DNA from: a virus | Taxonomy: Duplodnaviria > Heunggongvirae > Uroviricota > Caudoviricetes | Virus record (IMG/VR): IMGVR_UViG_3300024268_000023 | DNA: 64,000 nt | Strand: one strand, 5' to 3' | Shown: one piece after another, positions 41,438-55,090 of the stretch | Layout: each line of letters starts with the position of its first letter | Position numbering within the stretch: the stretch's first letter is position 1 | The notes under the pieces: model-generated | Database searches by the model: none | What the model saw: only the letters and a program-made list of their open reading frames with translations | Told to the model about the DNA's origin: nothing | Program-made: the position numbers and the translations under genes

Positions 41438-41513
41438 TGGTTGGGGTGGCGGGATTCGAACCCACGAGATGCAGGAGTCAAAGTCCTGTGCCTTACCGCT
41501 TGGCGACACCCCA
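41438..41513 (-). tRNA. tRNA-Gln(TTG)
   Basis: Hand-folded cloverleaf close to E. coli tRNA-Gln (UGGGGUGUCGCCAAGCGGUAAGG...). Anticodon loop CTTTGAC. CCA is encoded. Confidence 0.7.
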
Positions 41514-41516
41514 GTG

Positions 41517-41592
41517 TGGAGCTTCTATACGGAATCGAACCGTAAACCTGTTCATTACGAATGAACCGCTCTGCCAGTTGAGCTATAGAAGC
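41517..41592 (-). tRNA. tRNA-Thr(CGT)
   Basis: Acceptor GCTTCTA/TAGAAGC. D-arm GCTC-AACTGGCA-GAGC. Anticodon stem GTTCA/TGAAC with loop TTCGTAA. T-arm TACGG-TTCGATT-CCGTA. Confidence 0.6.
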
Positions 41593-41671
41593 AAGCTTAA
41601 GCTGGTTATCTCAAAAAACGGTACCGACGCGAGCGCCAATTCCTGGAAACCAGATAACCATGGTTTTGAGC

Positions 41672-41747
41672 TGGTGGGCCTTGAGGGACTCGAACCCCCA
41701 ACCAACCGCTTATGAGGCGGCTCCTCTGCCAGTTGAGCTAAAGGCCC
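41672..41747 (-). tRNA. tRNA-Met(CAT) (elongator or Ile-lysidine type)
   Basis: Acceptor GGGCCTT/AAGGCCC. Anticodon loop CTCATAA. T-loop TTCGAGT. Confidence 0.6.
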
Positions 41748-41856
41748 AGAAAGACGCGGTCTTTCCCGCCGTCAGCCGACTTTCATCGGCAATTTTATGA
41801 AGAATAAAAAAGCAGCGGCATCTGTACCCTCGCAAGAAAGGATAAAAGATGGCCTT

Positions 41857-41939
41857 GGTGCGCCTGACAGGACTTGAACCCGCAAGCCATTCGACACCAG
41901 ATCCTAAATCTGGCGCGTTTGCCATTTCGCCACAGGCGC
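41857..41939 (-). tRNA. tRNA-Leu(TAG)
   Basis: Acceptor GCGCCTG/CAGGCGC. Anticodon loop TTTAGGA. Long variable arm. 83 nt. Confidence 0.65.
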
Positions 41940-42283
41940 ATTTTCGCTGAAGTGGGGCGGAGATTGCGCCGCCCCACGCCCGGTCAGTTTTTATTTTACC
42001 GACGTGTCAGAACCGTCACACGTCATCACAACAGCGGAAGGTGTTTAGGTGAGCACCTTCAAGCTCAATTGCTACTCGCCTCACGAGCACATAAACACAG
42101 GAGGGTTGCAATTTCCTCATCTCCAATAATGGCGACGGCAGCACGTTCCGTCCTCTGTGCGTGGGGCAACATCAGTGGCGACACTTATTTCACAACCACC
42201 ATAAGAACCTGCACCAGCGCAGGCACCGGTACAGTAAGAAATTAGTTACCGATTTCTTATGCGAAGTGTCTTTAATGCGAATG

Positions 42284-42357
42284 GAGCGGATAACGGGAGT
42301 CGAACCCGCCTATCCAGCTTGGGAAGCTGGCATTCTACCGATGAACTATATCCGCAA
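42284..42357 (-). tRNA. tRNA-Gly(CCC)
   Basis: Acceptor GCGGATA/TATCCGC. Anticodon stem CCAGC/GCTGG with loop TTCCCAA. Confidence 0.65.
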
Positions 42358-42429
42358 GTAGGCGTGGCAGACTATAAAGCGGCCTGCCGGCGCTTTGAAA
42401 AAGGAGGGATTATGATTAATACTTATACT

Positions 42430-42504
42430 TGGAGCTGGTGGACGGATTTGAACCCCCAACCTGCTGATTACAAATCAGCTGCACTGCCATTGTGCTACAC
42501 CAGC
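42430..42504 (-). tRNA. tRNA-Thr(TGT)
   Basis: Acceptor GCTGGTG/CACCAGC. Anticodon stem GCTGA/TCAGC with loop TTTGTAA. Confidence 0.65.
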
Positions 42505-42558
42505 GCATGCCCTCGTCTTTCCGAGGCGTCAGCCTTGTACTGAGGCAAGATACATATC

Positions 42559-42628
42559 TCATGGCGGCAGGAATCGAACCTGAGACACGCCCCTCTCTGG
42601 GCTGCTCTACCAACTGAGCTACGCCATG
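42559..42628 (-). tRNA. degenerate/short tRNA-like gene (70 nt, anticodon arm not foldable by hand)
   Basis: Perfect 7-bp acceptor CATGGCG/CGCCATG. Canonical D-arm GCTC-AGTTGGTA-GAGC and T-loop TTCGATT. The 19 nt between the D- and T-arms do not form a standard anticodon stem. CCA is not encoded. Confidence 0.3.
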
Positions 42629-42711
42629 TTGTTTGAGGATTTATTTTACAACTAATCCTCAAAAGTTGTTATGAAAGGAATCGCTTTTGTTTTGGAAATT
42701 TAATTTCCAAA

Positions 42712-42795
42712 CTGGTGCCGGGCAGGGGACTCGAACCCCTACGAATTGCTCGTCAGGGCTTAAACCTGATGTGTCTGCCAATTTCACCACCCCGG
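42712..42795 (-). tRNA. tRNA-Leu(TAA)
   Basis: Anticodon stem TCAGG/CCTGA with loop TTTAAGC. Long variable arm. T-arm AGGGG-TTCGAGT-CCCCT. 84 nt. Confidence 0.6.
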
Positions 42796-42799
42796 CTTA

Positions 42800-43204
42800 T
42801 TACGACACCAATTGTTTTTCTCTTCTGTATTTTCCTATGCAACTCTTAGAGCAGAAAGGGCCTAATTGGCGTCTATATCTATTCCCATAATAATTTTGTT
42901 GCTGTTTAGCCGTCCATAAAAATTCTTTTCCGCAATAAACACAAACAGCAACTTTATCATGGTACTTCGATGGCATATGTTGACGTTGATGTTCACCATG
43001 CATAATAATTTGTAGGTTATCTAATTCATTATTCAATGGGTTTCCATCAATATGGTGAACGTCTTCTTCGGGTAATAATTCACGCCCAAGAAATTGTTCC
43101 ATTAAAAAACGAGGATAGGAAATTACTTTTTTCGATTCTTTAATATAAACCCTTTGTCTGCCGTCTTTACATGTATAGACAGTATAATCTAGGCCTTCAA
43201 TCAA
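42800..43204 (-). CDS. HNH homing endonuclease
   Basis: HHIDGNPLNNELDNLQ...HGEH motif (HNH with the Asn/His spacing). C-terminal Cys4 zinc finger. Embedded in the tRNA array. Confidence 0.75.
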   Translation of the reverse strand: MIEGLDYTVYTCKDGRQRVYIKESKKVISYPRFLMEQFLGRELLPEEDVHHIDGNPLNNELDNLQIIMHGEHQRQHMPSKYHDKVAVCVYCGKEFLWTAKQQQNYYGNRYRRQLGPFCSKSCIGKYRREKQLVS

Positions 43205-43359
43205 ATGGCATCATCCTTTCATATTACGACCCGCAGTGCTTATAACCCTCTACTCAGCACTTGATTTCTCCCGATTAGTTATGCCATCTAACCGCAATAG
43301 AAATCGTTCCCAATTCTACATTCAAAGGAGGGTGTCTATTATAATAATGTATAATAGAT

Positions 43360-43437
43360 TGGTGCCGGTGGTGGGATTCGAACCCACAGAAAAACGCATT
43401 TTGAGTACGCCCCGTTTGCCAATTACGACACACCGGC
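43360..43437 (-). tRNA. tRNA with ambiguous anticodon (CAA in a class-I body, or UCA opal-suppressor-like)
   Basis: Good acceptor (GCCGGTG/CACCGGC) and T-arm (GTGGG-TTCGAAT-CCCAC). Anticodon region GGCGTACTCAAAATGCG folds either with loop CTCAAAA (CAA) or loop ACTCAAA (UCA, with C33). There is no long variable arm, so it is not a normal tRNA-Leu. Confidence 0.4.
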
Positions 43438-43446
43438 ATTTTTATT

Positions 43447-43554
43447 TGGTGGCAAGGGTAGGATTTGAACCTACGAAGTTCTACGAGCGCACGCTAGCCA
43501 GCTCTACGAACGGGAATTTACGGTTCCCTTCTTTGACCACTTGAATACCTTAAC
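43447..43554 (-). tRNA. tRNA-like element, possibly tRNA-Tyr(GTA) with an unusually long (~37 nt) variable region, or a 3' tRNA fragment
   Basis: Clear 3' end (T-arm GTAGG-TTCAAAT-CCTAC, acceptor CCTTGCC, A, CCA). An anticodon-like hairpin GGGAA-CCGTAAA-TTCCC lies 50 nt upstream. The best 5' acceptor partner (GTTAAGG) makes the whole element 108 nt. Confidence 0.3.
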
Positions 43555-43561
43555 CATGTGA

Positions 43562-43639
43562 TGGTGGGGATGACAGGATTTGAACCTGCGGCTTCCTGTT
43601 CCCAAAACAGGAGCTCTAACCAAACTGAGCCACATCCCC
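43562..43639 (-). tRNA. tRNA-Pro(TGG)
   Basis: Acceptor GGGGATG/CATCCCC. D-arm GCTC-AGTTTGGTTA-GAGC. Anticodon stem CCTGT/ACAGG with loop TTTGGGA. CCA encoded. Confidence 0.7.
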
Positions 43640-43728
43640 AGATTTGCGCCGAGCGCCAACTCGGTGCAAATTTGCGAAACAACACAAATAAATGATATTT
43701 TGTTCCTCTTTTGCATTCCCCTTACGGG

Positions 43729-43804
43729 TGGGTCGAGGGGTAGGACTCGAACCTACGACTTTTAGCTTATGAGGCTAAATTGCTACCACTGCATCACCCT
43801 CGGA
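43729..43804 (-). tRNA. tRNA-Met(CAT), initiator-like (C1:A72 mismatch)
   Basis: Anticodon stem TTAGC/GCTAA with loop CTCATAA. The first acceptor pair is C:A, as in bacterial initiator tRNA. T-arm GTAGG-TTCGAGT-CCTAC. Confidence 0.55.
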
Positions 43805-43818
43805 TTTTTGCAATACTA

Positions 43819-43965
43819 TTTATTTTTGCTTTCGTCTTCAAAGAAGAAATCCCCACCAGTCTCCGGGTGTGTCCACAAACCATTGCCTAAATAGTATCTG
43901 CCTTGTTCGTCGTCTTCTCTGCTTTTGTTCATTTGATCATAATTAAGACCAAGTCCCATGACGTC
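43819..43965 (-). CDS. small hypothetical protein (~48 aa)
   Basis: AAAGGAGG RBS before the ATG (MGLGLNYDQMNKSREDD...). Sits between tRNA genes. Confidence 0.3.
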
Positions 43966-44022
43966 CTGCCTCCTTTCTATTGTTTCAGATGTTTTTTGAA
44001 GAGGGAATTAAAAAATTCCTTT

Positions 44023-44111
44023 GGCGGAGAGAGGGGGATTCGAACCCCCGCACGCTTTTACACGCCTATCGGTTTTCAAGACCGAACCCTTCAACCACTT
44101 GGGTATCTCTC
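44023..44111 (-). tRNA. tRNA-Ser(TGA)
   Basis: Acceptor GGAGAGA/TCTCTCC. Anticodon stem TCGGT/ACCGA with loop CTTGAAA. Long variable arm. 89 nt. Confidence 0.65.
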
Positions 44112-44169
44112 CACGCATGTGGGCTGATTGAATTATCTGGTCAATATTAATTCAAACTTTAGCGAAACA

Positions 44170-44250
44170 ATAAAACTCCCGAAAATAACCTGTCACACTT
44201 TCCGCCACAGTTTTGCTACAAGAATGTTTGAAGCAGGGAATGTACCTGGT
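44170..44250 (+). pseudogene. fragment of a tyrosine-integrase gene (catalytic-domain remnant)
   Basis: Encodes KITCHTFRHSFATRMFEAG, which is 16/20 identical to the window's integrase (ITCHTFRHTFATRLFESG) and about 75% identical at the nucleotide level. The remaining N-terminal ~350 codons of an integrase are absent, and the reading frame stops shortly downstream. Confidence 0.55.
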
Positions 44251-44319
44251 TCAAATTTCCAGATTTTTTACGTGTCAGCCCAACACGGAAAGCATTTTCT
44301 TTCGGCTTTTGCCTAGTCA

Positions 44320-44935
44320 GTCTGTGGTTACATGCTTTTCTTAACCCTCGTGCAAAGCTCCACAGATGTACGGAACTGACCCCATCATCTGCTTCATCGC
44401 TCGCCCCCGCCGAGCTTTTTGCAACAACGGGCAGCTTTGAACTCGGCCTTTTATTAGTCGCTTGCCGAGTAGCGACAAACATTTCACGCATCGAATAATT
44501 TATATACCGCACCATCGATAAGCGGTCTTTGTTTAAGTCCACATTAAGGCAGGGAATCACCTCGCCGAACTAGTCGGCTCCAGAACTCGTGACCAAAGAT
44601 TGGAACGAATTCGACGACCCTTTCTGCACATGGCAGACGGGCTAAAGCAAGATCTTACTTAAGACGAATAGCTATGCATTTCGTCTCTGGAATGCCGCTG
44701 TTAAGCGCAACGGCTTAGAAGCTATTCTCACATTCTGTGACGCATGGACGTTTCGCTGCTGAGTCTCGTGATGCCGTTGGCGTTAGCCATTAGGCATCTT
44801 CGTCGACTCAGCAGTCGAAACCCGAGCGCTCGTTCTCTCCTCCTAGGCGTGCCAGTGGCACGGCACGCCCTGGAGGAGAGTAACGAAAAAATCTTTGTGA
44901 TATTTTTTGTTTACTCCAGGTTACACCATAAAGCT
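44320..44935. ncRNA. GC-rich structured non-coding element A (~600 nt)
   Basis: GC content clearly above the flanking sequence. Multiple long inverted repeats (CTGCTGAGTC...GACTCAGCAG; CTCCTAGGCGTGCC...GGCACGCCCTGGAGGAG). No credible ORF. The right end carries the GGTYACACC motif shared with elements B and C. Confidence 0.4.
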
Positions 44936-45041
44936 TGGAACATTTACTAATTTTTACGGGATATATTGTCCATGTAAGCCTATTCTAATTAATTCATAAT
45001 ATATCTCGGTTCCAATATGCAATGTGAGCTTTTAATTTATC

Positions 45042-45302
45042 TTATATATAAAAGCTTGCGACAACAGGGTTATCGTAGCTAATAAGTCCTCTCTTTGAAA
45101 GTTCTTCATAGAAATAATCTATAAAAGAATCTTCGTCGAACTCCTCTTCTTCAAGATATGTATCGAGAGCGTCCTGGATTTCTCGCTTTTCTTCAGCCGT
45201 AAGTTCTCTTGTCACATCATAGGAAACAATAATTTCACCGTAGCCTGCATTATTGCAAAGGTTTACTTTCATGCAAATTCCTCCATTTTCACGATTTATC
45301 AA
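45042..45302 (-). CDS. hypothetical acidic protein
   Basis: 86-aa ORF. Confidence 0.4.
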   Translation of the reverse strand: MINRENGGICMKVNLCNNAGYGEIIVSYDVTRELTAEEKREIQDALDTYLEEEEFDEDSFIDYFYEELSKRGLISYDNPVVASFYI

Positions 45303-45607
45303 TACCTCTTCTCAAAGGCATAATCATCAATGTCAAGCATTTCCTTGAGGGCTTGAGCTTGTGGGGAATTTTCCAAGACGCGAGCCATTAGATGTACAGC
45401 ATATTCTCCGTCTTGAAGTTCGTTGTCACAAAATTCACCATAGCAGGCAAAACATTCTCCGCTATAATCCTCATCTTCTGCGACAAGTTCCATTTCCTCG
45501 AGCTCGTATCGGCGTTCCTCGCACCATTCCTTTTTATATTCTTTGTAAAGAAGAGCCGGAAGCTCATCCTCAATTTCAAGATACATTGGATTCAAAACTC
45601 CTTTCAT
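45299..45607 (-). CDS. hypothetical acidic Cys-containing protein
   Basis: 102-aa ORF with a start overlapping the previous stop. Confidence 0.4.
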   Translation of the reverse strand: MKGVLNPMYLEIEDELPALLYKEYKKEWCEERRYELEEMELVAEDEDYSGECFACYGEFCDNELQDGEYAVHLMARVLENSPQAQALKEMLDIDDYAFEKRY

Positions 45608-45905
45608 TTTATAAAATATGTTTGATAACTTATCACACTTGCGGGCGCCGGCGTCGTAGGGCCCATAGCCTGATGGGCATGAGCTTTACCGTGTTAGATG
45701 TGTTTCATCGCAGATTTTTCAGGAAGGCTGCGGGTTAACTTTTTGATTTCTTTCGGGATACATGTGTAATCCTAGAATTCATGATCATCCGCCAGCTGCT
45801 GGAGTTCAGCAGTGCCTTCGCTTCCCAGACCTCGCAGGGTTGGTTACCTCCGGAGGCGTGGTACCCTTCTTTCTGCTAATTTTTTACTTTTGGTCACACC
45901 AAGAA
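45608..45905. ncRNA. GC-rich structured non-coding element B (~300 nt)
   Basis: GC-rich with a CTGCTGGAGTTCAGCAG hairpin. The right end (CTAATTTTTTACTTTTGGTCACACCAAGAAG) is homologous to element C (CTAATCATTTTCTTTTGGTCACACCTAAAAAA), with identical TTTTGGTCACACC. Confidence 0.4.
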
Positions 45906-45952
45906 GCATCAATTGTTATTACGCAATTGATTATGCTTATCAAACAATGGTT

Positions 45953-46219
45953 TTATATAATTTCTTCTATATTAATAACTTCAAGAGAAGCTACAAGCGT
46001 ATGCTCAGGGCAATTCCATCCTGAATCAACATCAAGTATTTGCCCAGTCTCATCATCATCCAGATAATGTCCTTCATTCCAATCTTCGAATTCTACTCCG
46101 TACCAGGGTTCCTCTTCGTCTTCCATAAACTCTCTGATGATTCCAGTTTTGCCAAGCAATGAATATTCACCATCAGGCACGGCTATACATTTAACTACCT
46201 GTCCATATTTAAATTTCAT
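45953..46219 (-). CDS. small paralog-family protein 1 (ends VINIEEII)
   Basis: 88 aa starting MKFKYGQVVKC. First member of a tandem array of 11 related small genes. Confidence 0.55.
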   Translation of the reverse strand: MKFKYGQVVKCIAVPDGEYSLLGKTGIIREFMEDEEEPWYGVEFEDWNEGHYLDDDETGQILDVDSGWNCPEHTLVASLEVINIEEII

Positions 46220-46233
46220 AAACTAGACTTCCT

Positions 46234-46539
46234 TTATATAATTTCTTTTATATTGACTGATTCAAAGAGCGGAGCTAAAACGTCAGGGGAACAGTACCAT
46301 CCTGTTAAAGGTGAAACCCACTCTTGTTCTTTATCATCGAAGATTGCGTGTCCGTCTCTAATTGGTTTATCAAAACAGACACCGACCCAATCATTCCTAT
46401 CGTTCTGATTTCCAAATCCTTTACGATTAACGCATAAGACTGTTCCAACTAGGCCAACAAAGGAACGACCTCGCTCGGTATCGGTTATGTCGGTTGGTTT
46501 TTTGGTGCATCTGACTCTCTGCCCATAATGGAATTTCAT
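46234..46539 (-). CDS. small paralog-family protein 2 (ends SVNIKEII)
   Basis: 101 aa starting MKFHYGQRVRC. Confidence 0.55.
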   Translation of the reverse strand: MKFHYGQRVRCTKKPTDITDTERGRSFVGLVGTVLCVNRKGFGNQNDRNDWVGVCFDKPIRDGHAIFDDKEQEWVSPLTGWYCSPDVLAPLFESVNIKEII

Positions 46540-46814
46540 ATGAGTTCATCAACTCCAATCGGCATTTCAAGAAGGATTAAGGTTTTTGGAGGGCAATACC
46601 AACCATGATCCCACGCTATGGCCTCACCGGTTTCTGCATCGTCAAGAGAGTGTCCGTTTTCAATTTCTTCATCAAATTCAACCCCGGGCCAAAGCTCGTC
46701 TTCTGAATCATAAGATGTTGTAAAATCACGGACTGTACCTATTTGCCCTACCACGGAACCATTTCCGTCAGCAACATCTATGCAACGTACTCTTTGACCG
46801 TAATAAAACTGCAT
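46536..46814 (-). CDS. small paralog-family protein 3 (ends PIGVDELI)
   Basis: 92 aa starting MQFYYGQRVRC. ATGA start/stop overlap with the neighbour. Confidence 0.55.
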   Translation of the reverse strand: MQFYYGQRVRCIDVADGNGSVVGQIGTVRDFTTSYDSEDELWPGVEFDEEIENGHSLDDAETGEAIAWDHGWYCPPKTLILLEMPIGVDELI

Positions 46815-46829
46815 TTTGACTACCTCCTT

Positions 46830-47066
46830 TTATATAATTTCTTCTATATTAAGGATCTGAGAGCCTACAAACCCCCATGGAATAAACAGACCAATATCTC
46901 CGGTTACTTTTATTTCAGCATCATCAGGATCAATTATAGTAAGCCAATGCTCCGAGGCAGCGTGGACAGCCAGCGGTTTGTTCCCAAATTTAACCCAGTC
47001 ACTCCAAGTGAGCATATTTTTTTGTTCTGGGTTAATTTGTACTAAGTCTCCAGGCTTAATAAACAT
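46830..47066 (-). CDS. small paralog-family protein 4 (ends ILNIEEII)
   Basis: 78 aa. Confidence 0.5.
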   Translation of the reverse strand: MFIKPGDLVQINPEQKNMLTWSDWVKFGNKPLAVHAASEHWLTIIDPDDAEIKVTGDIGLFIPWGFVGSQILNIEEII

Positions 47067-47306
47067 CTATATCAACTCCTCAATGTTTATAATATCATCT
47101 ACCTTTTTTAGAGTAATTTTATAATAGCCGTAGTTCCATCCCAAACAGGCACTATTACAGTCAATCACTTTAAGCTTCCCAGAATAAATAAGCTCATCAT
47201 CTGCCGATATAATTCTTTCTATAAGATGGCCAGGAGTGAGTGGGAAACTAGATGTTATTACAAACCCATCGTCAATTTCTACTACCCAAGGGCTATAGTC
47301 TTTCAT
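47067..47306 (-). CDS. small paralog-family protein 5 (ends IINIEELI)
   Basis: 79 aa. Confidence 0.5.
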   Translation of the reverse strand: MKDYSPWVVEIDDGFVITSSFPLTPGHLIERIISADDELIYSGKLKVIDCNSACLGWNYGYYKITLKKVDDIINIEELI

Positions 47307-47614
47307 ATCAGTTCCTCTACGCCCACAGGAGCTTCGACTTTCCTGAGCTCAAGTTCTCCAGACTTAAACCAACGATGCTGACCTCGATCCGGTCGAACCT
47401 TCTCGTAAACATTTACAAGGTATTCTTTTCTCTTTTTCCCACCATCCCAGTAATCGTCTACCGAAAGGATTCTGCTTTCTCTGTTGGTTTTGTAAAGCCA
47501 ATAACGATCTTTGCCTCGCTGGCTAAATTCGACGAAATCGCCGATTTTAAATTTAGGTTTAAATCCCATATCGTACTCCTTTCTGAGACCGTTTTCTTTC
47601 AAGAAGATCAACAA
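47303..47614 (-). CDS. small paralog-family protein 6 (ends PVGVEELI)
   Basis: 103 aa. Confidence 0.5.
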   Translation of the reverse strand: MLIFLKENGLRKEYDMGFKPKFKIGDFVEFSQRGKDRYWLYKTNRESRILSVDDYWDGGKKRKEYLVNVYEKVRPDRGQHRWFKSGELELRKVEAPVGVEELI

Positions 47615-47792
47615 GGTAATTTACCTCTGATTCATATAAAGCAATGTTACCGTATTCATCTCCCCAAACGAATTCGTTTGCAATAGATCCGGTTAATTCT
47701 TCGATTTCATCGCTAATTTGTTTTATGGTAAGCTCATCCTCACTGGATAAGCCAAGTCTTTCAAGCAGGTTATCAATGTCGGCCATAGTCAA
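47559..47792 (-). CDS. hypothetical protein (no C-terminal tag)
   Basis: 77-aa helical protein. The only array member lacking the motif. Its 3' end overlaps the next gene. Confidence 0.4.
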   Translation of the reverse strand: MTMADIDNLLERLGLSSEDELTIKQISDEIEELTGSIANEFVWGDEYGNIALYESEVNYLVDLLERKRSQKGVRYGI

Positions 47793-47802
47793 CAGGCTCC
47801 TT

Positions 47803-48051
47803 TCATATTAACTCAGAGATATTTATGGGTTCAGTTGTTTTTGCAATGTATTTGCAAGGTATAAACCAGCCATGATACATCTCACACAGGCCATTGCAAT
47901 CATGCAATTCGTCTTTTTTGACATCCCATCTTACCGGAACCCAAGCTAACTCGGTTGCTCTTTCACCTGCAACTACGCCAGTGTCTCCTTTTTCCACATA
48001 ATCAAAATCTTTTACACAAATAACTCTTTGTCCTTTTGAAAATTCCATCAT
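47803..48051 (-). CDS. small paralog-family protein 7 (ends EPINISELI)
   Basis: 82 aa starting MMEFSKGQRVIC. Confidence 0.55.
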   Translation of the reverse strand: MMEFSKGQRVICVKDFDYVEKGDTGVVAGERATELAWVPVRWDVKKDELHDCNGLCEMYHGWFIPCKYIAKTTEPINISELI

Positions 48052-48353
48052 ATAAGCTCATCAACTCCCACCAATTCCCATGCTGCTTCAATCAATTTAA
48101 CATTGTCATGAAGTTTAGCTACATAACAAGCTCCGGTAACTCGTTTGAAATCACTGTCGCAGTAGTTATTAGGGTCGTCCAACATTACAAGAGCCCATCC
48201 GATGAATCGGCTATCATCACTACCGCCTGGTCTAGTTCCAAGTTCTTCAACCATTTCCTTTGTGAGATATCCGATAACTCTTCCTCTGTCTGCACAACCA
48301 TTGTTGGTGAATTCTACTCTGTCACCGATGCTCAAGCCAGATATGTTGTTCAT
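48048..48353 (-). CDS. small paralog-family protein 8 (ends LVGVDELI)
   Basis: 101 aa. Confidence 0.5.
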   Translation of the reverse strand: MNNISGLSIGDRVEFTNNGCADRGRVIGYLTKEMVEELGTRPGGSDDSRFIGWALVMLDDPNNYCDSDFKRVTGACYVAKLHDNVKLIEAAWELVGVDELI

Positions 48354-48369
48354 AGTTAAACTCCTTTCA

Positions 48370-48609
48370 TTAGATTAAATCAGATATGTTTATAACTGGA
48401 ATTTTTCTGCCGATTCTGCGAACTTCTTCTGTTCCAATTTTAAAATGATGATGGCGTTTTCCATTCTCGTATTTTACTACGGCATATTCAGTGTGAGGAT
48501 CTAATCCAGATCCTCTGTCGATACGAATAACTTCACCTCGACCCCAGACTTTGTTCCAATATTTTGTTCCTTCGACAATGTCACCGATTTCAAGCACAAG
48601 GTCACTCAT
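48370..48609 (-). CDS. small paralog-family protein 9 (ends VINISDLI)
   Basis: 79 aa. Confidence 0.5.
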   Translation of the reverse strand: MSDLVLEIGDIVEGTKYWNKVWGRGEVIRIDRGSGLDPHTEYAVVKYENGKRHHHFKIGTEEVRRIGRKIPVINISDLI

Positions 48610-48911
48610 ATCAATTCCTCCAATCCAACAATGTCAGATGTAGCAATAACTACTTTTTTGATACAAAAACGGTTCCAATACCAACCATGACCGAAGATGC
48701 CTTCTTCTGAATCTTCTTCCATTTGGACGGTGGGATTGTCTCCGTCATTGTATGCTGCACTTTTTACTGTCATCTTTTTGCCAAGCCAATGATCCATTTC
48801 GCCAAACGAATTTTCTTTGCAAAGCCCATCAAGATCCCACTCATCAACTATGAGCACAGAATCTCCCGGCTTCAAATTCTGAAAAGCTTTCTCACTTATC
48901 ATCGTGCTCAA
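48606..48911 (-). CDS. small paralog-family protein 10 (ends IVGLEELI)
   Basis: 101 aa. Its start overlaps the RT stop codon. Confidence 0.5.
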   Translation of the reverse strand: MSTMISEKAFQNLKPGDSVLIVDEWDLDGLCKENSFGEMDHWLGKKMTVKSAAYNDGDNPTVQMEEDSEEGIFGHGWYWNRFCIKKVVIATSDIVGLEELI

Positions 48912-50053
48912 GCCTCCTTGATGCGAGCTAATAGTGCGTGCTCAATATCGATTTTATACTTTTCGCTAAGGTGAGAAATAACATAATCGGCGTATTCCTT
49001 CTCTTGCTGACGAAAGTAATTGAACTGACCGAGCACAACCTGAGCATCGTGTACTGAACGTTCGTGCCCGTTTTTTGTGTCCAAAGCCCAGTTTGTGAGC
49101 ATGGCTTTAATTTCATCTTTCTTTTTCCAGCCAATTGTGATTTCTTTGTTGGCATTATACATCAGTCCCAAATGGAAGTTGTGTCCCGCAAAGGAACAGT
49201 AGTGGGTTTTCTTCGTGTTGAGCACGAAAGGAGCACCACAGTCTTTCAACATAACGAGCACGGCTTTTTCGATTTCCTTTGGGTTGAAATCTTTTGAGCA
49301 CGAAACACAGATATCATCCGCATATCTTGTGTAGTAAAACTTTTTGTCTCCATAGTTATGAGCGAGACTTTTTGACATTTCAAAATCAAAAGGAATCATA
49401 AGTAAGTTCGTGAGCATGGGAGAGATAGGGGTTCCTTGAGGCAGGCCTCCTTTGAGAAAACAGAGCTTAAGGCAATGCTCAAGAGCAATTTTCCCTTCCG
49501 GATGTTCAACAATCATACAAAAAGGGTAAATATGCGTGATGGTTTCCCATGCATATTTAAATGTAAAACTTCCAAAAAAGTTATGGAAGTCAAGGTATTC
49601 AAACCAACGACTGCCTCTGTTGGCATGGTACAATCTCTCATCTTTGGTTCCTCTACCAGGGACGTAAGCATATGCAGAAGTATGCCATTTTGCAGCACAG
49701 TCGTATTCAAAGCAATGTCTGAGAAGCTTGAGGCTTGACTTTAAGGCACCGAGAGGCTCGTCGATAGGACGTTTACCGCCATTCTTCTTAGGTATTTCAT
49801 AATGACGATAGTATTTCTCCATATGTGCCAAATCAAAGTCCTTAGTGGCTTCCACAATTCTTTCGAGTGAACGAATCATAGAATGCACATGAGTTTTCGA
49901 TTTTATGGCAAACGGAATTGCTTCTGTCTTGATGGTTCTTGTGTAGGGGATATCTCTTCTGTTTATGTTTTCAAAACTAAAATCCCCTGCTAAAAATTCA
50001 TCAATCGTGATTTGCTTTTCATGGGGAGAGGCAGGTAAAGTTATGTAATACAT
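48908..50053 (-). CDS. reverse transcriptase (retron/group-II-like, stand-alone)
   Basis: RT motif 4 LPQGTPISPMLTNLLM (QGxxxSP) and motif 5 YYTRYADDICVSC (YADD). 381 aa. No maturase, endonuclease or Zn domain. A 390-bp GC-rich non-coding region lies immediately upstream. Confidence 0.8.
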   Translation of the reverse strand: MYYITLPASPHEKQITIDEFLAGDFSFENINRRDIPYTRTIKTEAIPFAIKSKTHVHSMIRSLERIVEATKDFDLAHMEKYYRHYEIPKKNGGKRPIDEPLGALKSSLKLLRHCFEYDCAAKWHTSAYAYVPGRGTKDERLYHANRGSRWFEYLDFHNFFGSFTFKYAWETITHIYPFCMIVEHPEGKIALEHCLKLCFLKGGLPQGTPISPMLTNLLMIPFDFEMSKSLAHNYGDKKFYYTRYADDICVSCSKDFNPKEIEKAVLVMLKDCGAPFVLNTKKTHYCSFAGHNFHLGLMYNANKEITIGWKKKDEIKAMLTNWALDTKNGHERSVHDAQVVLGQFNYFRQQEKEYADYVISHLSEKYKIDIEHALLARIKEA

Positions 50054-50059
50054 TATTGC

Positions 50060-50440
50060 TCCTTTCTTCCATATCCTATATATGTGATTGCTGCTACTTC
50101 AGATCAGGAACACTAGTTGTTACTGGGTTACAGCAATTCTTTGGGTAGAGGTGAGTTACCTGTACTAGTGATAAGCTCATCTTGGCACACATGATTTCGT
50201 GTGTGATGTCGCGAGCAACCACGGTTTTGAGTTGTTTCTCTTTTGAGGTTTGAGTGAACTTACGAAGCACCCGTTCGAGATCTAGGATGCCAATCGCCGT
50301 CCCAGGGCTATTACCTTCTACTAATCATTTTCTTTTGGTCACACCTAAAAAATCGCTTTCGTTTCATGACACTTAGCGCGATCGATATGGATTTTTATTT
50401 TTGTTTACTTGAGGAGCTCTAATGAGCTCCGGTTCTTCTA
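50060..50440. ncRNA. GC-rich structured non-coding element C, upstream of the RT on the same strand
   Basis: No ORF. It carries inverted repeats (CACACATGATTTCGTGTGTG; GGAGCTC-TAAT-GAGCTCC) and the shared CTAAT...TTTTGGTCACACC motif. It is a candidate RT-associated ncRNA. Confidence 0.4.
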
Positions 50441-50441
50441 A

Positions 50442-51122
50442 TTAAAATGCCTTAGAATAAGACATGAAGGGATTGGAGAAAATAATATGTTTCCATTCTT
50501 CTCCTTTTACCATTCTCATAAAGTTTGCAACAGCCATCGAACAAATGCATCTGATAGTAGGTGCGACAGAAAGAGGCTGGTTGCACGCAGATACGGGCTG
50601 TTGCTCGTCTGCTTCTTCTTTGGTGAACTGCATGGTAGAAAGAAGACGCTCTTGGTCTTTAATGCTCTGCCAGTCAGCAGCATAATGCTGAGCATCTTCA
50701 AGACCTACGCGGATATCAAAGATACCTTTGATGGCCGGGTTACCAGAGTTTTCCTCACAAATTTTCTTTCTCAGCTCGATGTTATCGACTGCGAGAAATA
50801 CATATCCATCGAGAGGCTGATCACTGTAACCGTGTTTAAAAAGGCGAAGTCCTTTCGAACCGATTTCAATATCGGGGTTGATGCGAGTCATCATTTCTGC
50901 AACAGCATCAACTTTGAGCCGACCGATATCGGTTGCGTAAAACATCTGATTCGCTACGTTATGAGCTTCGACTGTGTCAAAGTCATAAAGCGAAACTTTT
51001 GTGAGACCGAGACGAGCAATATTTTCTGCAACAGTGCTGCCTACTGCACCACAGCCGATGATATGCACTCTGCCGTCACATTTTTCGGGCTTGAAAAATT
51101 CATAAGAACGTACAAGATCCAT
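50442..51122 (-). CDS. E1-like (ThiF/MoeB-family) adenylyltransferase
   Basis: Rossmann GCGAVGS and the YDFDTVEAHNVANQ ThiF/E1 signature. 226 aa. Confidence 0.65.
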   Translation of the reverse strand: MDLVRSYEFFKPEKCDGRVHIIGCGAVGSTVAENIARLGLTKVSLYDFDTVEAHNVANQMFYATDIGRLKVDAVAEMMTRINPDIEIGSKGLRLFKHGYSDQPLDGYVFLAVDNIELRKKICEENSGNPAIKGIFDIRVGLEDAQHYAADWQSIKDQERLLSTMQFTKEEADEQQPVSACNQPLSVAPTIRCICSMAVANFMRMVKGEEWKHIIFSNPFMSYSKAF

Positions 51123-51138
51123 AATCCAAATTCCTTTC

Positions 51139-51576
51139 TTATATGATTTCGTTTATGTTTACAGATTCATTCTGTTTGAAAATCTGAGCATAATTTCCAA
51201 CTGCATTGGGAGCAACATCAGACTCTATAGAGCGCTGAATACCGCAATATTCCCACAAATCTCCGTTGTATAATTCTTCGTTATCTTCTAAGTCTTCGCC
51301 AATGTGAACGTAAACGTATTGGATGTTTTCGCTGTCACAATGATACAGATATTGCATCGTCGCATCTACATCGGAAAATTCACGGTACCATTTTGTGGTA
51401 TATATTTTTGCCAATATTACAGGATTGGATGGGTCTTTTCGATTTTCAAACAAACTGTAATCATCAGCATGCGTCCAAGTGCGATGCGCTTCCTCGTTGG
51501 AAGCTTTGAAATGATTGAGCATATCCATAAAATCTTTTTTATACATTGCAAGTCCAACATCACTGTAGTATCCCAT
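51139..51576 (-). CDS. hypothetical protein (ends SVNINEII)
   Basis: 145 aa with the shared C-terminal motif. Confidence 0.45.
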   Translation of the reverse strand: MGYYSDVGLAMYKKDFMDMLNHFKASNEEAHRTWTHADDYSLFENRKDPSNPVILAKIYTTKWYREFSDVDATMQYLYHCDSENIQYVYVHIGEDLEDNEELYNGDLWEYCGIQRSIESDVAPNAVGNYAQIFKQNESVNINEII

Positions 51577-51587
51577 ACAAAGCCTCC

Positions 51588-52001
51588 TTATATGAGCTCA
51601 TCGATTCCGACGAGTTCTATGATTTCATTTGTAACGTAGTAAACTTCGTTATATTCTCTGATATCTCTCAAAACCCATTCTTCATCAAGTTCTTCGGATT
51701 GAATATAACTCGAAAGATATGTGATATTTGCGTCACTATTGAATGAAGCTGAGTCAAACTCATCAAAAGCCTCATCAAGATCGTAATCATAGAACGGGGC
51801 AAAGATTCTGTGATCCTCACCAAACGCCCAAAGGCTTGTATAGCCAAGCGCCTTTGCTTGATCTGGGTTATGGACAAGAACAGCCACTCTTTTCTTTGCA
51901 ATGCGAGACAACTCGTCTGGAGTGATGGGCATAGGATTTAACCCAAATCCGTCCCGTATAAATTTGCAAAATTTTCTATTTGCCTCCTGTTCAGAAAACA
52001 T
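51588..52001 (-). CDS. hypothetical protein (ends LVGIDELI)
   Basis: 137 aa with the shared C-terminal motif. Confidence 0.45.
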   Translation of the reverse strand: MFSEQEANRKFCKFIRDGFGLNPMPITPDELSRIAKKRVAVLVHNPDQAKALGYTSLWAFGEDHRIFAPFYDYDLDEAFDEFDSASFNSDANITYLSSYIQSEELDEEWVLRDIREYNEVYYVTNEIIELVGIDELI

Positions 52002-52014
52002 TTAACCACTCCTT

Positions 52015-52329
52015 TCAAATTATTTCTTCAATATTAACTAAGGAGAAATCACTTGTGAGTTCGTCTCCAGTGAAATACTCCCATTCTTCTGTGAAATCAA
52101 CTCGATAAGTATTGACGAGGTCTGGTGAATCATCCCAAGTGTCTTCAAAGCATCTCGAGACCACGCCTTTGTCCCCAATTTGAATTTTTTCCGTGGGAGG
52201 CTCAGAATGACACTGCCGCACATAAATGACGCGGTCTCCTTCTTTGAACTTGAATTTAGTACCCATACTGACTACCATACTGGTTACCGTAAAATCCTTT
52301 GTAACTACCGTACTGAGCAATAGCATCAT
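52015..52329 (-). CDS. hypothetical protein (ends LVNIEEII)
   Basis: 104 aa with the shared C-terminal motif. Confidence 0.45.
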   Translation of the reverse strand: MMLLLSTVVTKDFTVTSMVVSMGTKFKFKEGDRVIYVRQCHSEPPTEKIQIGDKGVVSRCFEDTWDDSPDLVNTYRVDFTEEWEYFTGDELTSDFSLVNIEEII

Positions 52330-53296
52330 GCTCTTCTTTTATGATTTCTGCTTCAACAAGAAGGTCGTCTATTGTGTTTTTGGTGAAGCCAGCGTTAACA
52401 GACTCGAGCAATTCTTCAAGAATTTCGTCTGCTTCAAGCCAACCTACGGTAAGGGCAGTAACGATAGTGCTTGCAGAAATCTGGAGCTGAGTCTTAGTGA
52501 GAGGTTTCTTTTTCCCAGACTCTTTTCCTTTAGAGCCTTTGGATTCTTTAGTGCCGGAAGAAGCACCAGAAGTGGAAGGGAATTGGCTCACGTTAGATTT
52601 ACTGTAATTGGAATTATAAGTTCCACCGTAGGTTTTGGCTTTGAGCTTATCTTCTTTTTCGGTTTTCACCCACCCGAGAAGGTCTTCTCCAACGGGTACC
52701 ACAAAATCAATTTCTTTTGTATCAAAGAGAGCATTGCTTTCCATATCGTAAAGAGCTCCAGTGAACTCAAAAGATTTATTCATAATGAAGAAGATAAAGA
52801 ACCCATCATCGTCAAGAGTTTCAACTACTTCCTTTCTGCAAATCATATCTGTAGAAGAGGGGGAAGGAGCCATATTGACATGAGAATGTCCCTGAAAATT
52901 AAGTTTGCATCTCTGCTGAACAGGAATTTTTGAAAGCCACAGAGCCCTTTCGGTTTCATCCGCTTCAACGGTTGCAGAAGCGACTTTCTGAGGGTAAACA
53001 AGAATGTCGGTAATTTTGAAATGAGTTTCATCGATGCGATCGACAATACCATTCCAAGCAACCTCACTGTTTGTCATACAAACAAGAGCGGACATTTTAG
53101 CCCATGCTTCGGGAGTAAACTCGACCTGGGGTCTGTCATAGTCTTTTGAAGTGTAAGCATAAGGCATTTTGAACTCAATGGTTCCGTCTTTAAGAACATC
53201 AGTTTTGAGTTTTTCAAGAAACGAATCTACTTTTTCAAGCAGAGCTGCCTTGGTTTCTTCAATCATGTTTTCAGTTGCTCTAATAGGTTTCGGCAT
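52256..53296 (-). CDS. JAB/MPN+ (JAMM) metalloprotease domain protein
   Basis: The HSHVNMAPSPSSTD stretch matches the JAMM motif HxHx7Sx2D, with an upstream Glu. A Lys/Ser-rich linker leads to a C-terminal domain. The 5' end overlaps the previous gene, so the true start may be internal. Confidence 0.65.
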   Translation of the reverse strand: MPKPIRATENMIEETKAALLEKVDSFLEKLKTDVLKDGTIEFKMPYAYTSKDYDRPQVEFTPEAWAKMSALVCMTNSEVAWNGIVDRIDETHFKITDILVYPQKVASATVEADETERALWLSKIPVQQRCKLNFQGHSHVNMAPSPSSTDMICRKEVVETLDDDGFFIFFIMNKSFEFTGALYDMESNALFDTKEIDFVVPVGEDLLGWVKTEKEDKLKAKTYGGTYNSNYSKSNVSQFPSTSGASSGTKESKGSKGKESGKKKPLTKTQLQISASTIVTALTVGWLEADEILEELLESVNAGFTKNTIDDLLVEAEIIKEEHDAIAQYGSYKGFYGNQYGSQYGY

Positions 53297-53308: not shown

Positions 53309-54775
53309 TTAACTGTTTTCTCTAAGCCATGCAACTGCATCTATGTAGTTTACTTTGCGTCCATCAGGAAGAAGATAAGGACACTGATGTTTATTCCAAA
53401 GCTGTTCTTTGGAGTATCTTTCAACTACGCAATCATCGGTGAATACGAGATATGGGCAAGAACCAATTGCCTGAGAAACGGCACCAACGTAGTTGCCGAC
53501 GCTCATGCATTCAGTCATTCTGCTCTCGTTGGTTCCAAGACATCTGTAATAGTAATGATGCGGCTGGGGAGCATATCCGGCGAATTTAGGAGCGGGTTCG
53601 CAAAGTCCCGGTTCATCTTTGCTTATTACAGAAAGAGTTCCGCGCTCAAGGGAAAGTCTGAAGTTCGAATAAACAGGAACCTTAATTTCACGCTCAATAA
53701 AGACTGACTCCATGAGCTTGATTGCTTCTTTTTCAGTAATTTCCTTTTCTTTATCGCGATAAGCACAGTAAATTCTTCTGCGGATATCATCAATGTCATG
53801 AGTCGGGTCTTTAAACGCTGTGAGATTTGCGGTGGCGGTAAAAATGAGATCATTGCCTTGCCAAGTGCGAATCGCAATTGAAGGTCTTCCAGTGAAAAGA
53901 ACTGCAAGTTCAGAGCCATCACCATCTTCGTCTACCTCAAGAGAACGTTTTCTAAGATAGCTATCCCTGATGCGTGCTGCATAATCTTCAAGCTTTGCAA
54001 CGGTATCACGATACTGTCTGTTAAGATTATCCAGTTCAGAGGTCGCATTACGAAGGAGTTTTCCTTTTACGCTTTTGTAAGCATTTTTGAATTTGATGCT
54101 CTGTACTTTTTCAGCAACATCAGTTCCTTCATAAATTTTCTGAGCAGCGGCAACAAATTCGTTATCACCAATGTCGATAGCTCTAACAAGTTCTCTTTCA
54201 AGTTCATTGAGGGGATGGTTTTCAAAAGTAAAATCGGGTTTCACATTGAAATACCAAGGAATAATTCTGGGGCATACTGCTGCACACACGTTCCAGAAAT
54301 ATTCACCAACGATAGAACCGACAACGACTGAAATCTTGTCTTTTTCGTTGTAATAAGTTTGAATAAAGTCGCCTTCATTTTTATATTCCTGTTTTTCGAT
54401 GCGACCATCGAAAAACTTATTTACTATATCGTTAGGCACAAAGCCACGTTTTGTAAAAATAGCTTTGAGCGGAGTTTTCAAAGTTTTGTACTGTCCTACA
54501 TAAATGTAGTAAAGGGAACCAGGTGTAAGTTCCAGTGCTTCAACTTTTCCCTTTGTGCCATCGACGGTTTCGTTTGCGAAGTTTATGGAAGTAAAGTTGA
54601 AGATTTCCCCATCTTTAAGTCTCGGAGGAAGACATGCTCTAAAGACGATACGGGGAACCTCGTGTTTGTCTTGTTCAGTTCCATGCTCTACGATGTTCGG
54701 ATAACATTCGGCAAGGGCAAGCTCGCCTATTTCGATGTGGGTAGAGAGCTCAGCTACAGGATATCTTTCATCCAT
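53309..54775 (-). CDS. large hypothetical protein in E1/JAB neighbourhood
   Basis: 488 aa with several Cys/His pairs near the C-terminus. No E2 HPN motif seen. Confidence 0.45.
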   Translation of the reverse strand: MDERYPVAELSTHIEIGELALAECYPNIVEHGTEQDKHEVPRIVFRACLPPRLKDGEIFNFTSINFANETVDGTKGKVEALELTPGSLYYIYVGQYKTLKTPLKAIFTKRGFVPNDIVNKFFDGRIEKQEYKNEGDFIQTYYNEKDKISVVVGSIVGEYFWNVCAAVCPRIIPWYFNVKPDFTFENHPLNELERELVRAIDIGDNEFVAAAQKIYEGTDVAEKVQSIKFKNAYKSVKGKLLRNATSELDNLNRQYRDTVAKLEDYAARIRDSYLRKRSLEVDEDGDGSELAVLFTGRPSIAIRTWQGNDLIFTATANLTAFKDPTHDIDDIRRRIYCAYRDKEKEITEKEAIKLMESVFIEREIKVPVYSNFRLSLERGTLSVISKDEPGLCEPAPKFAGYAPQPHHYYYRCLGTNESRMTECMSVGNYVGAVSQAIGSCPYLVFTDDCVVERYSKEQLWNKHQCPYLLPDGRKVNYIDAVAWLRENS

Positions 54776-54868: not shown

Positions 54869-55090
54869 TTAAGCGTTCTGAAGTTTGTTGGAAACAACGA
54901 TGTCAACGATGTTGCTTCCATCAGCGAGAGAATTGAGAGTGACGTTGCAATCGGTTACAACATCGGAGTTGACGATGATCTGTCTGGAGGTGGCAATGCC
55001 GTGTCCTTCGCAGAACTGTTTGAGGGTCATGCCTCCATCAACGATTTCGGATTTGCAGTTGGAATCAACAGAATAGTAAACCTGTACCAT
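54869..55090 (-). CDS. small beta-rich protein, possible ubiquitin-like (ThiS/MoaD-like) candidate
   Basis: 73 aa. LADGSNIVDIV resembles the MoaD/ThiS C-terminal strand, but the protein ends ...KLQNA rather than GG. Confidence 0.3.
   Translation of the reverse strand: MVQVYYSVDSNCKSEIVDGGMTLKQFCEGHGIATSRQIIVNSDVVTDCNVTLNSLADGSNIVDIVVSNKLQNA

Follow-up and report, generated by a model that had tools for sequence, protein, structure and literature searches.

A divergent retron-type reverse transcriptase with several candidate template RNAs at a fixed position in a family of large uncultured phages

Retrons are viewed as bacterial anti-phage systems composed of one reverse transcriptase (RT), one non-coding RNA (ncRNA) and one effector. 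What, then, is an RT with an apparent template RNA upstream of it doing in the genome of a phage? This question was addressed for the IMG/VR virus record IMGVR_UViG_3300024268_000023 (Caudoviricetes), of which a stretch of 64,000 nucleotides, referred to below as the window, was analysed. Besides the RT (positions 48908-50053, minus strand), the window encodes a tail protein, an integrase, a ribonucleotide reductase, a large DNA polymerase and a primase/helicase. A preliminary description of this DNA had read the locus as an RT preceded by its template ncRNA, in the manner of retron msr-msd systems, and had presented it as stand-alone, a lone oddity within a phage. The first part of this claim was upheld, with an RT of the retron clade and a leader showing the hallmarks of a retron ncRNA, supported by covariation; the second was not, the element being a conserved syntenic feature of a large phage family, with at least two ncRNA units in the window. 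On the basis of sequence comparisons, we consider it likely that the locus comprises a retron-type RT plus multiple ncRNA units, and that both belong to the phage itself.

The RT open reading frame (ORF) is intact, starts with ATG and encodes 381 amino acids including the motifs GGLPQGTPISPMLTN and YTRYADDICVS, as had been noted before. The YADD and LPQGTPISP motifs were both intact, and Pfam detected RVT_1 only (E 1.1e-18, residues 87-287), in agreement with the earlier statement that the protein carries no maturase, HNH, Zn or Cas domain. An alignment of 20 RT members (A1; 39-100% identity) contained 61 invariant columns including those of YADD, and an N-terminal extension of ~75 aa was conserved within the family. 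The best PADLOC model was retron RT_II-A (E 1.1e-43, 148 bits, residues 77-365), and all 25 listed PADLOC hits (best 25 of 67) were retron RT models. NCBIfam profiles gave 164 bits for retron_St85_RT (below its curated cut-off of 235), 90 for retron-TIR and 83 for retron Ec67, versus 77 bits for the group II RT/maturase model (cut-off 300), 51 for Drt2 (cut-off 390) and 39 for Drt3a (cut-off 200), the latter two profiles covering the catalytic core only (residues 202-291 in the case of Drt2). The 12 best PDB sequence matches were all retron RTs, including Ec78, Ec83, Kva2, Ec67 and Ec86. Because PADLOC, NCBIfam and PDB matches all favoured retron RTs, the enzyme is classified by profile scores and PDB matches as a divergent member of the retron clade.

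A 388-nt gap (50054-50441) separates the RT from a same-strand upstream ThiF gene (50442-51122). A single ORF was found in it (58 aa, GTG start), located in the portion that could not be aligned between relatives; the earlier report of a same-strand non-coding region directly upstream of the RT holds. Folding of the whole gap was moderately better than that of shuffled sequences (z = -2.58). Both inverted repeats quoted in the preliminary description are real, GGAGCTC/GAGCTCC at 50413-50430 and CACACATGA/TCGTGTGTG at 50186-50205, but they are not the decisive ones: the GGAGCTC hairpin lies outside the ncRNA unit and the CACACA hairpin in its non-conserved core. The decisive repeat, which had been missed, pairs TCCATATC (50391-50384) with GATATGGA (50075-50068; repeat I7).

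These two arms, a1 and a2, delimit the first ncRNA unit (nc1; 50068-50391, minus strand), a retron-type msr-msd candidate defined by the repeat and by a leader alignment (A2). On the RNA strand, a1 (50384-50391) is directly followed by a G (50383), invariant column G12 of the family alignment A3 described below and the candidate branch or priming guanosine. Next come two stem-loops: SL1 (50352-50382; ATCGC ... GCGAT), which was read from the sequence and whose counterpart in relatives varies in position and sequence, and SL2 (50332-50350; UUUUAGG-UGUGA-CCAAAAG), a conserved msr hairpin identified with RNAalifold. They precede a variable core (~50101-50320), the presumed template (msd), which was unalignable in A2 even with a relative whose RT is 88% identical, and which folded without a strong single hairpin (z = -1.65). 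A conserved 3' block (50076-50100; ..GCAGCAAUCACAUAUAUAG), the presumed start of the template, has a UAG end adjoining a2 (50068-50075). The latter arm is located 3 nt upstream of the RT Shine-Dalgarno (SD) sequence AAAGGAG (50059-50065), and the unit as a whole ends 14 nt before the RT start codon.

The same plan recurred throughout the family. Leaders of five relatives (A2) consisted of a near-invariant ~80-nt 5' block, an unalignable middle of ~220-250 nt and an invariant 3' block (..ATATAGGATATGGA) immediately ahead of the ribosome-binding site of the RT, ending in GATATGGA, the complement of the start of the 5' block, TCCATATC. In most family loci, 300-450 nt free of ORFs preceded the RT. 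In the 77 loci with sufficient upstream sequence, the last 75 nt before the RT were compared with the region further upstream, and exact inverted repeats of 8 nt or more, with G after a1, were found in 80.5%, versus 4.5% of shuffled upstream regions. The position of a1/a2 was constant while its sequence was clade-specific (for instance TATGCAAT/ATTGCATA, ACTGTAAC/GTTACAGT, AAATCGTGAT/ATCACGATTT and ATAACTGTAAT/ATTACAGTTAT). When G was not required in the search, it was still the next base in 23 of 31 distinct a1 sequences, and the base triplet preceding a2 in 31 distinct units was TAG in 13 and CAG in four (17/31 together).

Covariation was assessed in alignment A3, comprising 31 sequences in whose choice SL2 played no part. 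RNAalifold recovered both a1/a2 and SL2, and the G after a1 was invariant. Compensatory changes were observed in 8/8 a1/a2 pairs and 8/9 SL2 pairs, which points to an RNA structure rather than a DNA site. Paired cells made up 88% for SL2 alone and 93% for a1/a2 and SL2 together, versus 34-43% when partners were slid by one to three columns; since a1/a2 had been found by an inverted-repeat search, its pairing in A3 is partly true by construction, and independent support for it comes from the shuffled control, the G, SL2, the TAG triplet and a hold-out set. The latter consisted of 16 assessable loci from metagenome-assembled genomes (MAGs), fetched after the hypothesis had been formed, of which ~13 shared the plan, two of these with a1/a2 arms of 13-17 nt containing a single bulge. 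SL1 was visible in every clade, its register being lost in the MAFFT alignment.

These features bear on whether the RT operates as retron RTs do. DRT2 is a defence RT with a structured upstream ncRNA template and no separate effector gene, and the arrangement seen here, a structured ncRNA template just upstream of an RT with no separate effector gene, is similar. The mechanism might be DRT2/UG-type unbranched copying, by rolling circle or template jumping, or else the enzyme might be a group II intron RT or the RT of a diversity-generating retroelement (DGR). A geometry compatible with template jumping is indeed provided by the a1/a2 duplex, which joins the ends of the template; the core is devoid of a classical msd hairpin, and the NCBIfam retron score is below its cut-off. 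The profile scores and the listed PADLOC hits nevertheless point to retrons, and an invariant G exactly at the a1 junction is a retron signature, as is the a1/a2-plus-G layout that sets this locus apart from DRT2. We regard a mechanism unlike that of retrons as very unlikely. Membership of the DRT2/UG-Abi clade was rejected on the Drt2 and Drt3a scores and on the absence of any non-retron RT model among the 25 listed PADLOC hits. The group II intron RT, named in the preliminary description as a finding that would speak against a retron, was likewise rejected, with less than half the bits of the retron model and no maturase or endonuclease domain; no Rfam group II RNA domain was matched in 47000-52000 even with E up to 1, and none window-wide at gathering score. 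A DGR with its template repeat elsewhere, the second such finding, was rejected too: no template/variable repeat of either ncRNA unit was present in the 64 kb window, and core substitutions were not adenine-specific. Repeats of nc1 or nc2 longer than 35 nt were absent from the window, the remaining ~65 kb of the phage genome lying outside the search.

Alignment of the leader to the window by blast returned one 35-nt match (45871-45905), the lone match of this length between units in the window, and led to a second unit, nc2 (45619-45946, minus strand), which has no adjoining RT and lies ~3 kb downstream of the RT stop codon, beyond an array of small paralogous ORFs. It was further supported by a motif search, by an alignment of second copies (A7) and by minimum free energy (MFE) folding. 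The unit begins with a1 (TGTTTGATAA, 45946-45937) and a G directly after it (45936), both read from the sequence, followed by SL1 (45931-45908; sequence reading and MFE fold) and SL2 (45906-45887), the core of which (GGUGUGACCAAAAG) is identical to that of nc1 SL2. A variable core then leads to the triplet AAG and to a2 (TTATCAAACA, 45628-45619), after which come the SD and start codon of an ORF for an acidic, Cys-containing protein of 102 aa (45299-45607, minus strand). The MFE fold yielded the a1/a2 closing stem, SL1 and SL2 (z = -3.43). The SL2 motif occurred exactly twice in the window, versus 0.12 matches expected, and twice in each of L082, L084, L085 and L087; second copies, including that of L086, displayed conserved ends, covarying SL1 stems and a variable core in A7. 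A third candidate unit at 44890-44963, in which an SL2-like hairpin is present but a1/a2 arms are not, was left unconfirmed.

A covariance model of the 5' module (R1), the training set of which includes both window units, was used to count units across loci; it scored 36 bits on nc1 (50394-50308) and 54 bits on nc2, each a training sequence, and E = 0.11 on the unconfirmed third candidate. With an E cut-off of 0.01, R1 matched 50 loci in 99 places, each of them on the RT strand. Seventy-seven of the 96 hits that were checked had their own exact a1/a2 pair (7-13 nt) and G, with a2 located 209-373 nt downstream, usually after TAG or CAG. Relatives had between two and approximately nine units per RT within 5-6 kb of it; many phages carried two or three tandem units directly past the RT stop codon, and one locus (L059) had nine hits. 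As a specificity control we used 62 viral loci obtained in an IMG/VR pattern scan for the GAAGTAACAA motif, which were mostly chance matches and are informative in this respect only. Fourteen of them had R1 hits, and these were exactly the 14 encoding the RT; no hit occurred in the 48 control loci without RT, corresponding to 469 kb of unrelated viral DNA.

This coincidence also bears on whether the units have anything to do with the RT. They could be promoter or terminator modules or recombination sites, with the RT a mere remnant, and in favour of such a reading many units, nc2 included, lie away from the RT, and an A-rich, TATAAA-like stretch precedes many a1 arms. On the other hand, the RT is intact, with 61 invariant columns among 20 members, units and RT coincided in 14/14 loci of the test set, all R1 hits shared the RT strand, and SL2 and a1/a2 show compensatory changes. 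We consider this account exceedingly unlikely. The A-rich stretch itself was located at 50401-50392 before nc1 and at 45959-45951 before nc2, as well as in many other loci (for example aataaaaaT|CCATATC and ttatataaaa..TGTTTGATAA), and might, judging from its sequence, be a promoter element for each unit. A sigma-70 consensus scan did not report this stretch, and no sigma-70-type promoter was found in the leader on the minus strand.

Most units sit immediately upstream of a gene. An SD and ORF start were found within ~50 nt after 46 of 63 well-defined units (2-33 nt), and the others were followed by the next unit; in the window, nc1 ends just before the RT SD and nc2 precedes the 102-aa ORF. 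An effect of reverse transcription in cis on the gene that follows is therefore conceivable, as in type VI retrons, the reverse-transcribed DNA of which is reported to derepress translation of the downstream effector (10.1101/2025.10.22.683967). The units could then be mainly cis-acting 5' leaders and the RT a regulator, operating via reverse transcription and RNase H cleavage, with cDNA as a by-product. However, the genes downstream differ between phages (RT, metallophosphoesterase, small unknown proteins), and core divergence that outpaces synonymous sites 5-30-fold is not expected in a purely regulatory leader. The position of the units is not discriminating on its own, because in classical retrons, too, msd is found just ahead of the RT. 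Type VI retrons further differ in that no pair of helix-turn-helix protein and small toxin was recognised here, and type VI RT models scored only 74 bits on the window RT versus 148 for type II-A. On balance, a predominantly regulatory function in cis appears unlikely.

The rapid change of the cores was evident from comparisons between near-identical phages (L006/L010/L011, L017-L025, L043-L060, L002/L004/L019 and L075/L077), in which cores diverged 5-30 times more than third codon positions of the RT. For instance, the core was 89.9% identical between L004 and L019, which have RT genes identical at all nucleotides. Core identity was 83.7% in L010/L011, 71.3% in L017/L024 and 70.6% in L075/L077, at RT third-position identities of 99.5%, 92.3% and 92.6%, respectively. 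In six close groups substitutions were seen only in the middle of the unit, while the first ~75 nt and the last ~40-60 nt were invariant. Core substitutions showed no bias toward any base, which sets the process apart from adenine mutagenesis of the DGR type. Local hypermutation (e.g. through cDNA copied back), recombination among diverged alleles and strong diversifying selection are all possible sources of the change. The cores were also compositionally distinct, with C enriched and T depleted on the RNA strand (A 30.5%, C 27.5%, G 22.5%, T 19.4%, versus 20.8% C and 26.6% T in RT genes) and with ~50% GC across the family versus ~45% in whole loci. The latter figures give some weak basis, elsewhere in the family, to the earlier impression of a leader with GC content well above the phage average; for the window itself this impression was not borne out, because the GC content of the gap (41.8%) falls within the range of same-size windows (39.6%, sd 4.1%; ~75th percentile).

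Taken together, the evidence suggests a model in which the single RT would be served by at least two same-strand template RNAs, nc1 and nc2. In each RNA, pairing of a1 with a2 would set the invariant G beside the conserved ..UAG preceding a2, and the RT would dock on the conserved 5' hairpins (SL1, SL2 and the motif that follows). Synthesis of cDNA would be primed from the 2'-OH of the G after a1, and the RT would then copy the conserved 3' block and subsequently the variable core, giving one branched RNA-DNA molecule (multicopy single-stranded DNA, msDNA) per unit. We infer from sequence the transcription of the units, priming from the G, the synthesis and length of the cDNA and the use of nc2 by the same RT.

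The distribution of the RT provides evidence on whether the element belongs to the phage or is cargo. A protein search returned 1197 RT relatives, among them a close group, 70-100% identical and carried by contigs that reach 170 kb, and a large group at ~40% identity, and at least 411 RT loci were found in IMG/VR. The exact RT protein was present on metagenome contigs of ~129 kb. The carriers, phage contigs ~100-170 kb in length, came from the gut and from other host-associated samples, and the four close relatives that were examined all showed ThiF, a 360-390-nt gap, the RT and a small-ORF array, in this order. Among species-representative genomes, relatives of full length were confined to MAGs, labelled mostly as Oscillospiraceae, Lachnospiraceae, Roseburia, Lawsonibacter, Christensenella and Clostridia, with two labelled Bacteroides/Bacteroidales; the carriers are probably phages of gut Clostridia. 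Below ~35% identity the matches were ordinary bacterial retron RTs, aligning over residues ~80-320 only. No close relative was found in cultured GenBank phages, the best match being 34% identical and from an unannotated faecal metagenome record; the window had no nucleotide similarity to GenBank phages, and an IMG/VR single-protein query returned no close relatives.

An ordinary defence retron, i.e. a tripartite toxin-antitoxin or abortive infection system carried as cargo by a temperate phage and protecting the lysogen, with an unrecognised effector nearby, would account for some of these observations. Studied E. coli retrons except Eco5 are prophage-related (PMC7736814), GenBank records of Pf-type Pseudomonas phages annotate retron-type RTs, the window contains an integrase (11176-12435), and a fast-changing msd would be expected of a sensor engaged in an arms race. 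Cargo, however, is usually patchy in distribution, and here the RT occupies one position across a deep family, with identity down to ~35%. In addition, no known retron effector domain adjoined the RT in Pfam, PADLOC and NCBIfam scans, several ncRNA units per RT are unlike the tripartite layout, and neither ThiF nor ubiquitin figures in the retron classification paper (PMC7736814). We therefore regard a conventional defence retron as a possible but doubtful explanation. The integrase is a tyrosine integrase on the minus strand (phrog_1, E 4.6e-65), and in one clade a second integrase-family gene (L043 7196-8011) was located a few genes downstream of the RT, among small paralogs.

Conservation of the locus extended to the genes upstream of the RT. 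Of 79 ThiF-anchored viral loci, 78 had the RT downstream, the exception being a truncated contig. The typical gene order in the 78 RT loci was a ~75-aa protein, F1, a JAB-like protein, sometimes an acidic protein, ThiF, sometimes a DUF6273-like protein, the ncRNA and the RT, with F1 (~490 aa) present in 67, the JAB-like gene in 35 and ThiF in at least 43, the last figure being a lower bound owing to long antisense ORFs that hide ThiF in some rows. The strict co-occurrence of RT and ThiF within one phage family is compatible with a functional link or, equally, with shared ancestry and conserved gene order.

In the window, the ThiF/E1-like adenylyltransferase (226 aa; 50442-51122, minus strand) contains a GCGxVGS nucleotide-binding loop and an invariant Cys180 (alignment A6), and was recognised by Pfam (ThiF, E 7.7e-23), by PADLOC E1-E2 models and by NCBIfam, where the PRTRC ThiF model gave 33 bits against a cut-off of 145. 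Further upstream on the same strand are a JAB/MPN-like protein of 346 aa (52256-53296; motif HSHVNMAPSPSSTD; PADLOC JAB model, E 1e-4), the 488-aa protein F1 (53309-54775) and a small protein of 73 aa (54869-55090), the positional counterpart of family f7 upstream of F1. No Pfam or NCBIfam family matched F1, and two protein searches gave 11 relatives. In its predicted model, an alpha/beta domain at the N terminus is followed by a long coiled coil and by a C-terminal domain in which His406 and Cys412 are invariant; a structure search with this model gave weak RWD/UBC-like fold matches, by which F1 may be E2-like. One f7 member had a sub-threshold match to DUF2604 (E 0.023), and the 73-aa protein may be ubiquitin-like. 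An E1-like adenylating enzyme and a JAB deconjugase are thus both present by profile match, and the RT adjoins what looks like a ubiquitin-like conjugation set (ThiF/E1, JAB, a possible E2-like protein and a possible ubiquitin-like protein, Ubl). As regards these neighbours, the ThiF/E1 with its Cys, the JAB-like HxH..S..D motif and the possible Ubl and E2-like proteins resemble the Bil-type Ubl/E2/JAB/E1 sets, CBASS Cap2/Cap3 and the PRTRC cassette. The set differs from all of these in being phage-encoded and always adjoining an RT, from PRTRC in its low ThiF score, and in that the E2-like call derives from weak fold matches.

What several templates would be good for can be stated only tentatively. 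The likeliest of the roles considered, held with reserve, is that the phage makes several single-stranded DNA/RNA hybrids, abundant and quick to change in sequence, which would act on factors of the host or of rival phages as decoys, sensors or regulators. The ubiquitin-like conjugation genes, or the genes directly downstream of the units, may be their partners, and the fast change of the cores may stem partly from error-prone cDNA copied back into the phage genome. A bolder and decidedly improbable form of this proposal is a multi-template DNA factory, in which cassettes, each with its own a1/a2 'address', would be renewed by write-back of cDNA and used against host defences or rival phages, possibly via the Ubl enzymes. 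If true, this would be a natural self-diversifying retron array working for a virus and not for a cell.

Comparison with described systems defines how far the element departs from them. To bacterial retrons (Retron-Sen2/St85, Eco1/Ec86, Eco7/Ec78) it is linked by the clade of its RT, according to profile and PDB matches, and by a same-strand ncRNA directly upstream with a1/a2 arms, a G after a1, conserved msr hairpins and a variable template. It differs from them in having several ncRNA units for each RT, of which some are kilobases distant, no recognised effector of types I-XIII, the ~75-aa N-terminal extension of the RT, a template without a strong single hairpin, an NCBIfam score below the retron cut-off and a fixed position in a large phage family as opposed to a bacterial defence island. 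Retrons on prophages and satellites are known, Ec73 being carried by phiR73 and Ec67 by a P2-like prophage. These and the retrons of Pf-like phages share with the present element a phage-borne retron-type RT, although similarity to GenBank phage RTs was weak (27-32% identity). Prophage and satellite retrons are accessory cargo in which effectors are fused or adjacent and the ncRNA is single, unlike the multiple units seen here in synteny over hundreds of phage contigs of ~100-170 kb. By sequence, the element has most of the features of a retron that can be tested in this way, with five departures: several units, no known effector, no strong msd hairpin, the N-terminal extension and the fixed position in phages.

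Several observations count against the interpretation of the locus as a phage-owned retron with multiple ncRNAs and have to be set beside the evidence for it. The retron_St85_RT score falls short of its cut-off, R1 was trained on both window units, and the a1/a2 pairing is in part built into A3. A strong single msd hairpin of the classical type was not supported across 41 non-redundant variable cores (mean z -0.69 versus dinucleotide shuffles, 6/41 below -2), folding being somewhat better for whole units (z = -2.58 for the nc1 gap, -3.43 for nc2), and the Rfam covariance search proposed in the preliminary description matched no family to nc1 or nc2, permissive thresholds included. No known retron effector domain was found among the neighbours in the Pfam, PADLOC and NCBIfam scans, and constant synteny within one phage family is no proof that the Ubl, E1 and JAB genes work with the RT. 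As to novelty, no description of this clade or of natural multi-ncRNA retrons was found in the literature searched, and the retron classification paper mentions neither ThiF nor ubiquitin (PMC7736814). A prior description is possible, however, because one preprint (10.64898/2026.09.22.753630) pairs 'ncRNA array' (ten occurrences) with 'reverse transcriptase' (14 occurrences). Engineered 'retron arrays' have been reported (PMC10370050).

The locus thus presents RT-ncRNA machinery at one genomic position across hundreds of phage contigs, with several candidate templates for one enzyme and without a known effector. Should the units be reverse transcribed, retrons would also serve viruses, which would widen their known biology, and one RT would naturally use several templates, with a bearing on multiplexed retron genome editing, for which arrays have so far been engineered. 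The fast-changing cores would, in that case, offer a test of feedback from retron cDNA into the genome. The locus also gives a concrete handle on an uncultured phage family that probably infects Clostridia.

A few further features of the locus remain to be described. The hairpin GGAGCUC-AUUA-GAGCUCC (I17; 50413-50430, minus strand) is situated past the ThiF stop codon and before nc1. In the leader alignment of relatives it shows covariation (U:A to C:G), and it may be the 3' end or a processing signal of the ThiF transcript. Its assignment as a minus-strand intrinsic terminator was rejected, the terminator scan calling the plus strand only and no U run following on the minus strand. An antisense ORF of 219 aa (50487-51146, plus strand) spans the ThiF gene, its equivalents in relatives forming family f4, and is most likely not a gene.

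The paralog array reported next to the RT was also recovered, with small paralogous ORFs abutting the RT gene. Ten of them (78-103 aa; 45953-48911, minus strand) lie between the RT and nc2 and end in the tail [VI][NG][IVL]x[ED][LI]I, and three further small ORFs with the same C-terminal tail (51139-52329, minus strand) lie between the ThiF and JAB-like genes. In all 13 (78-145 aa) the tail is followed by the stop codon. Tails were also compared in L082-L087, L043, L061, L069 and L075; they are conserved at the protein level, given that codons differ between copies. For the same reason, and with most SDs located after the stop codon, a DNA-level role of the tail as ribosome-binding or start signal of the next gene was rejected. 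The small-ORF arrays of other clades carry tails of their own (..EEFI, ..C[KR]SLL, ..S[NK]LI and ..LLGG), and such arrays flank the ThiF/E1-like and JAB-like genes. In ~19 loci a calcineurin-like metallophosphoesterase (L006 6739-7437; Metallophos, E 8.8e-14), absent from the clade of the window, was encoded, often directly behind the last downstream unit.

Finally, other RNAs were detected downstream of nc2. At gathering score, Rfam matches in the whole window were limited to tRNAs, drum RNA and skipping-rope RNA. ARAGORN called an array of 12 tRNA genes (41438-44112, minus strand), one of them with a two-base anticodon (42559-42628), and a weak 105-nt Rfam tRNA match (43450-43554) was not called by ARAGORN. 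The skipping-rope RNA (RF02924; 42093-42162, minus strand; 46 bits versus a gathering score of 36.7) is located inside this array. The stretch 44113-45040 (minus strand) has short overlapping ORFs only, no family-supported gene and a GC content (0.46-0.49) higher than its surroundings, and it takes in the weak R1 hit at 44890-44963. The drum RNA (RF02958; 44287-44402, minus strand; 67 bits versus a gathering score of 43) lies in this region of ~900 nt without convincing genes, between the ORF at 45042-45302 and a tRNA-Ser gene.

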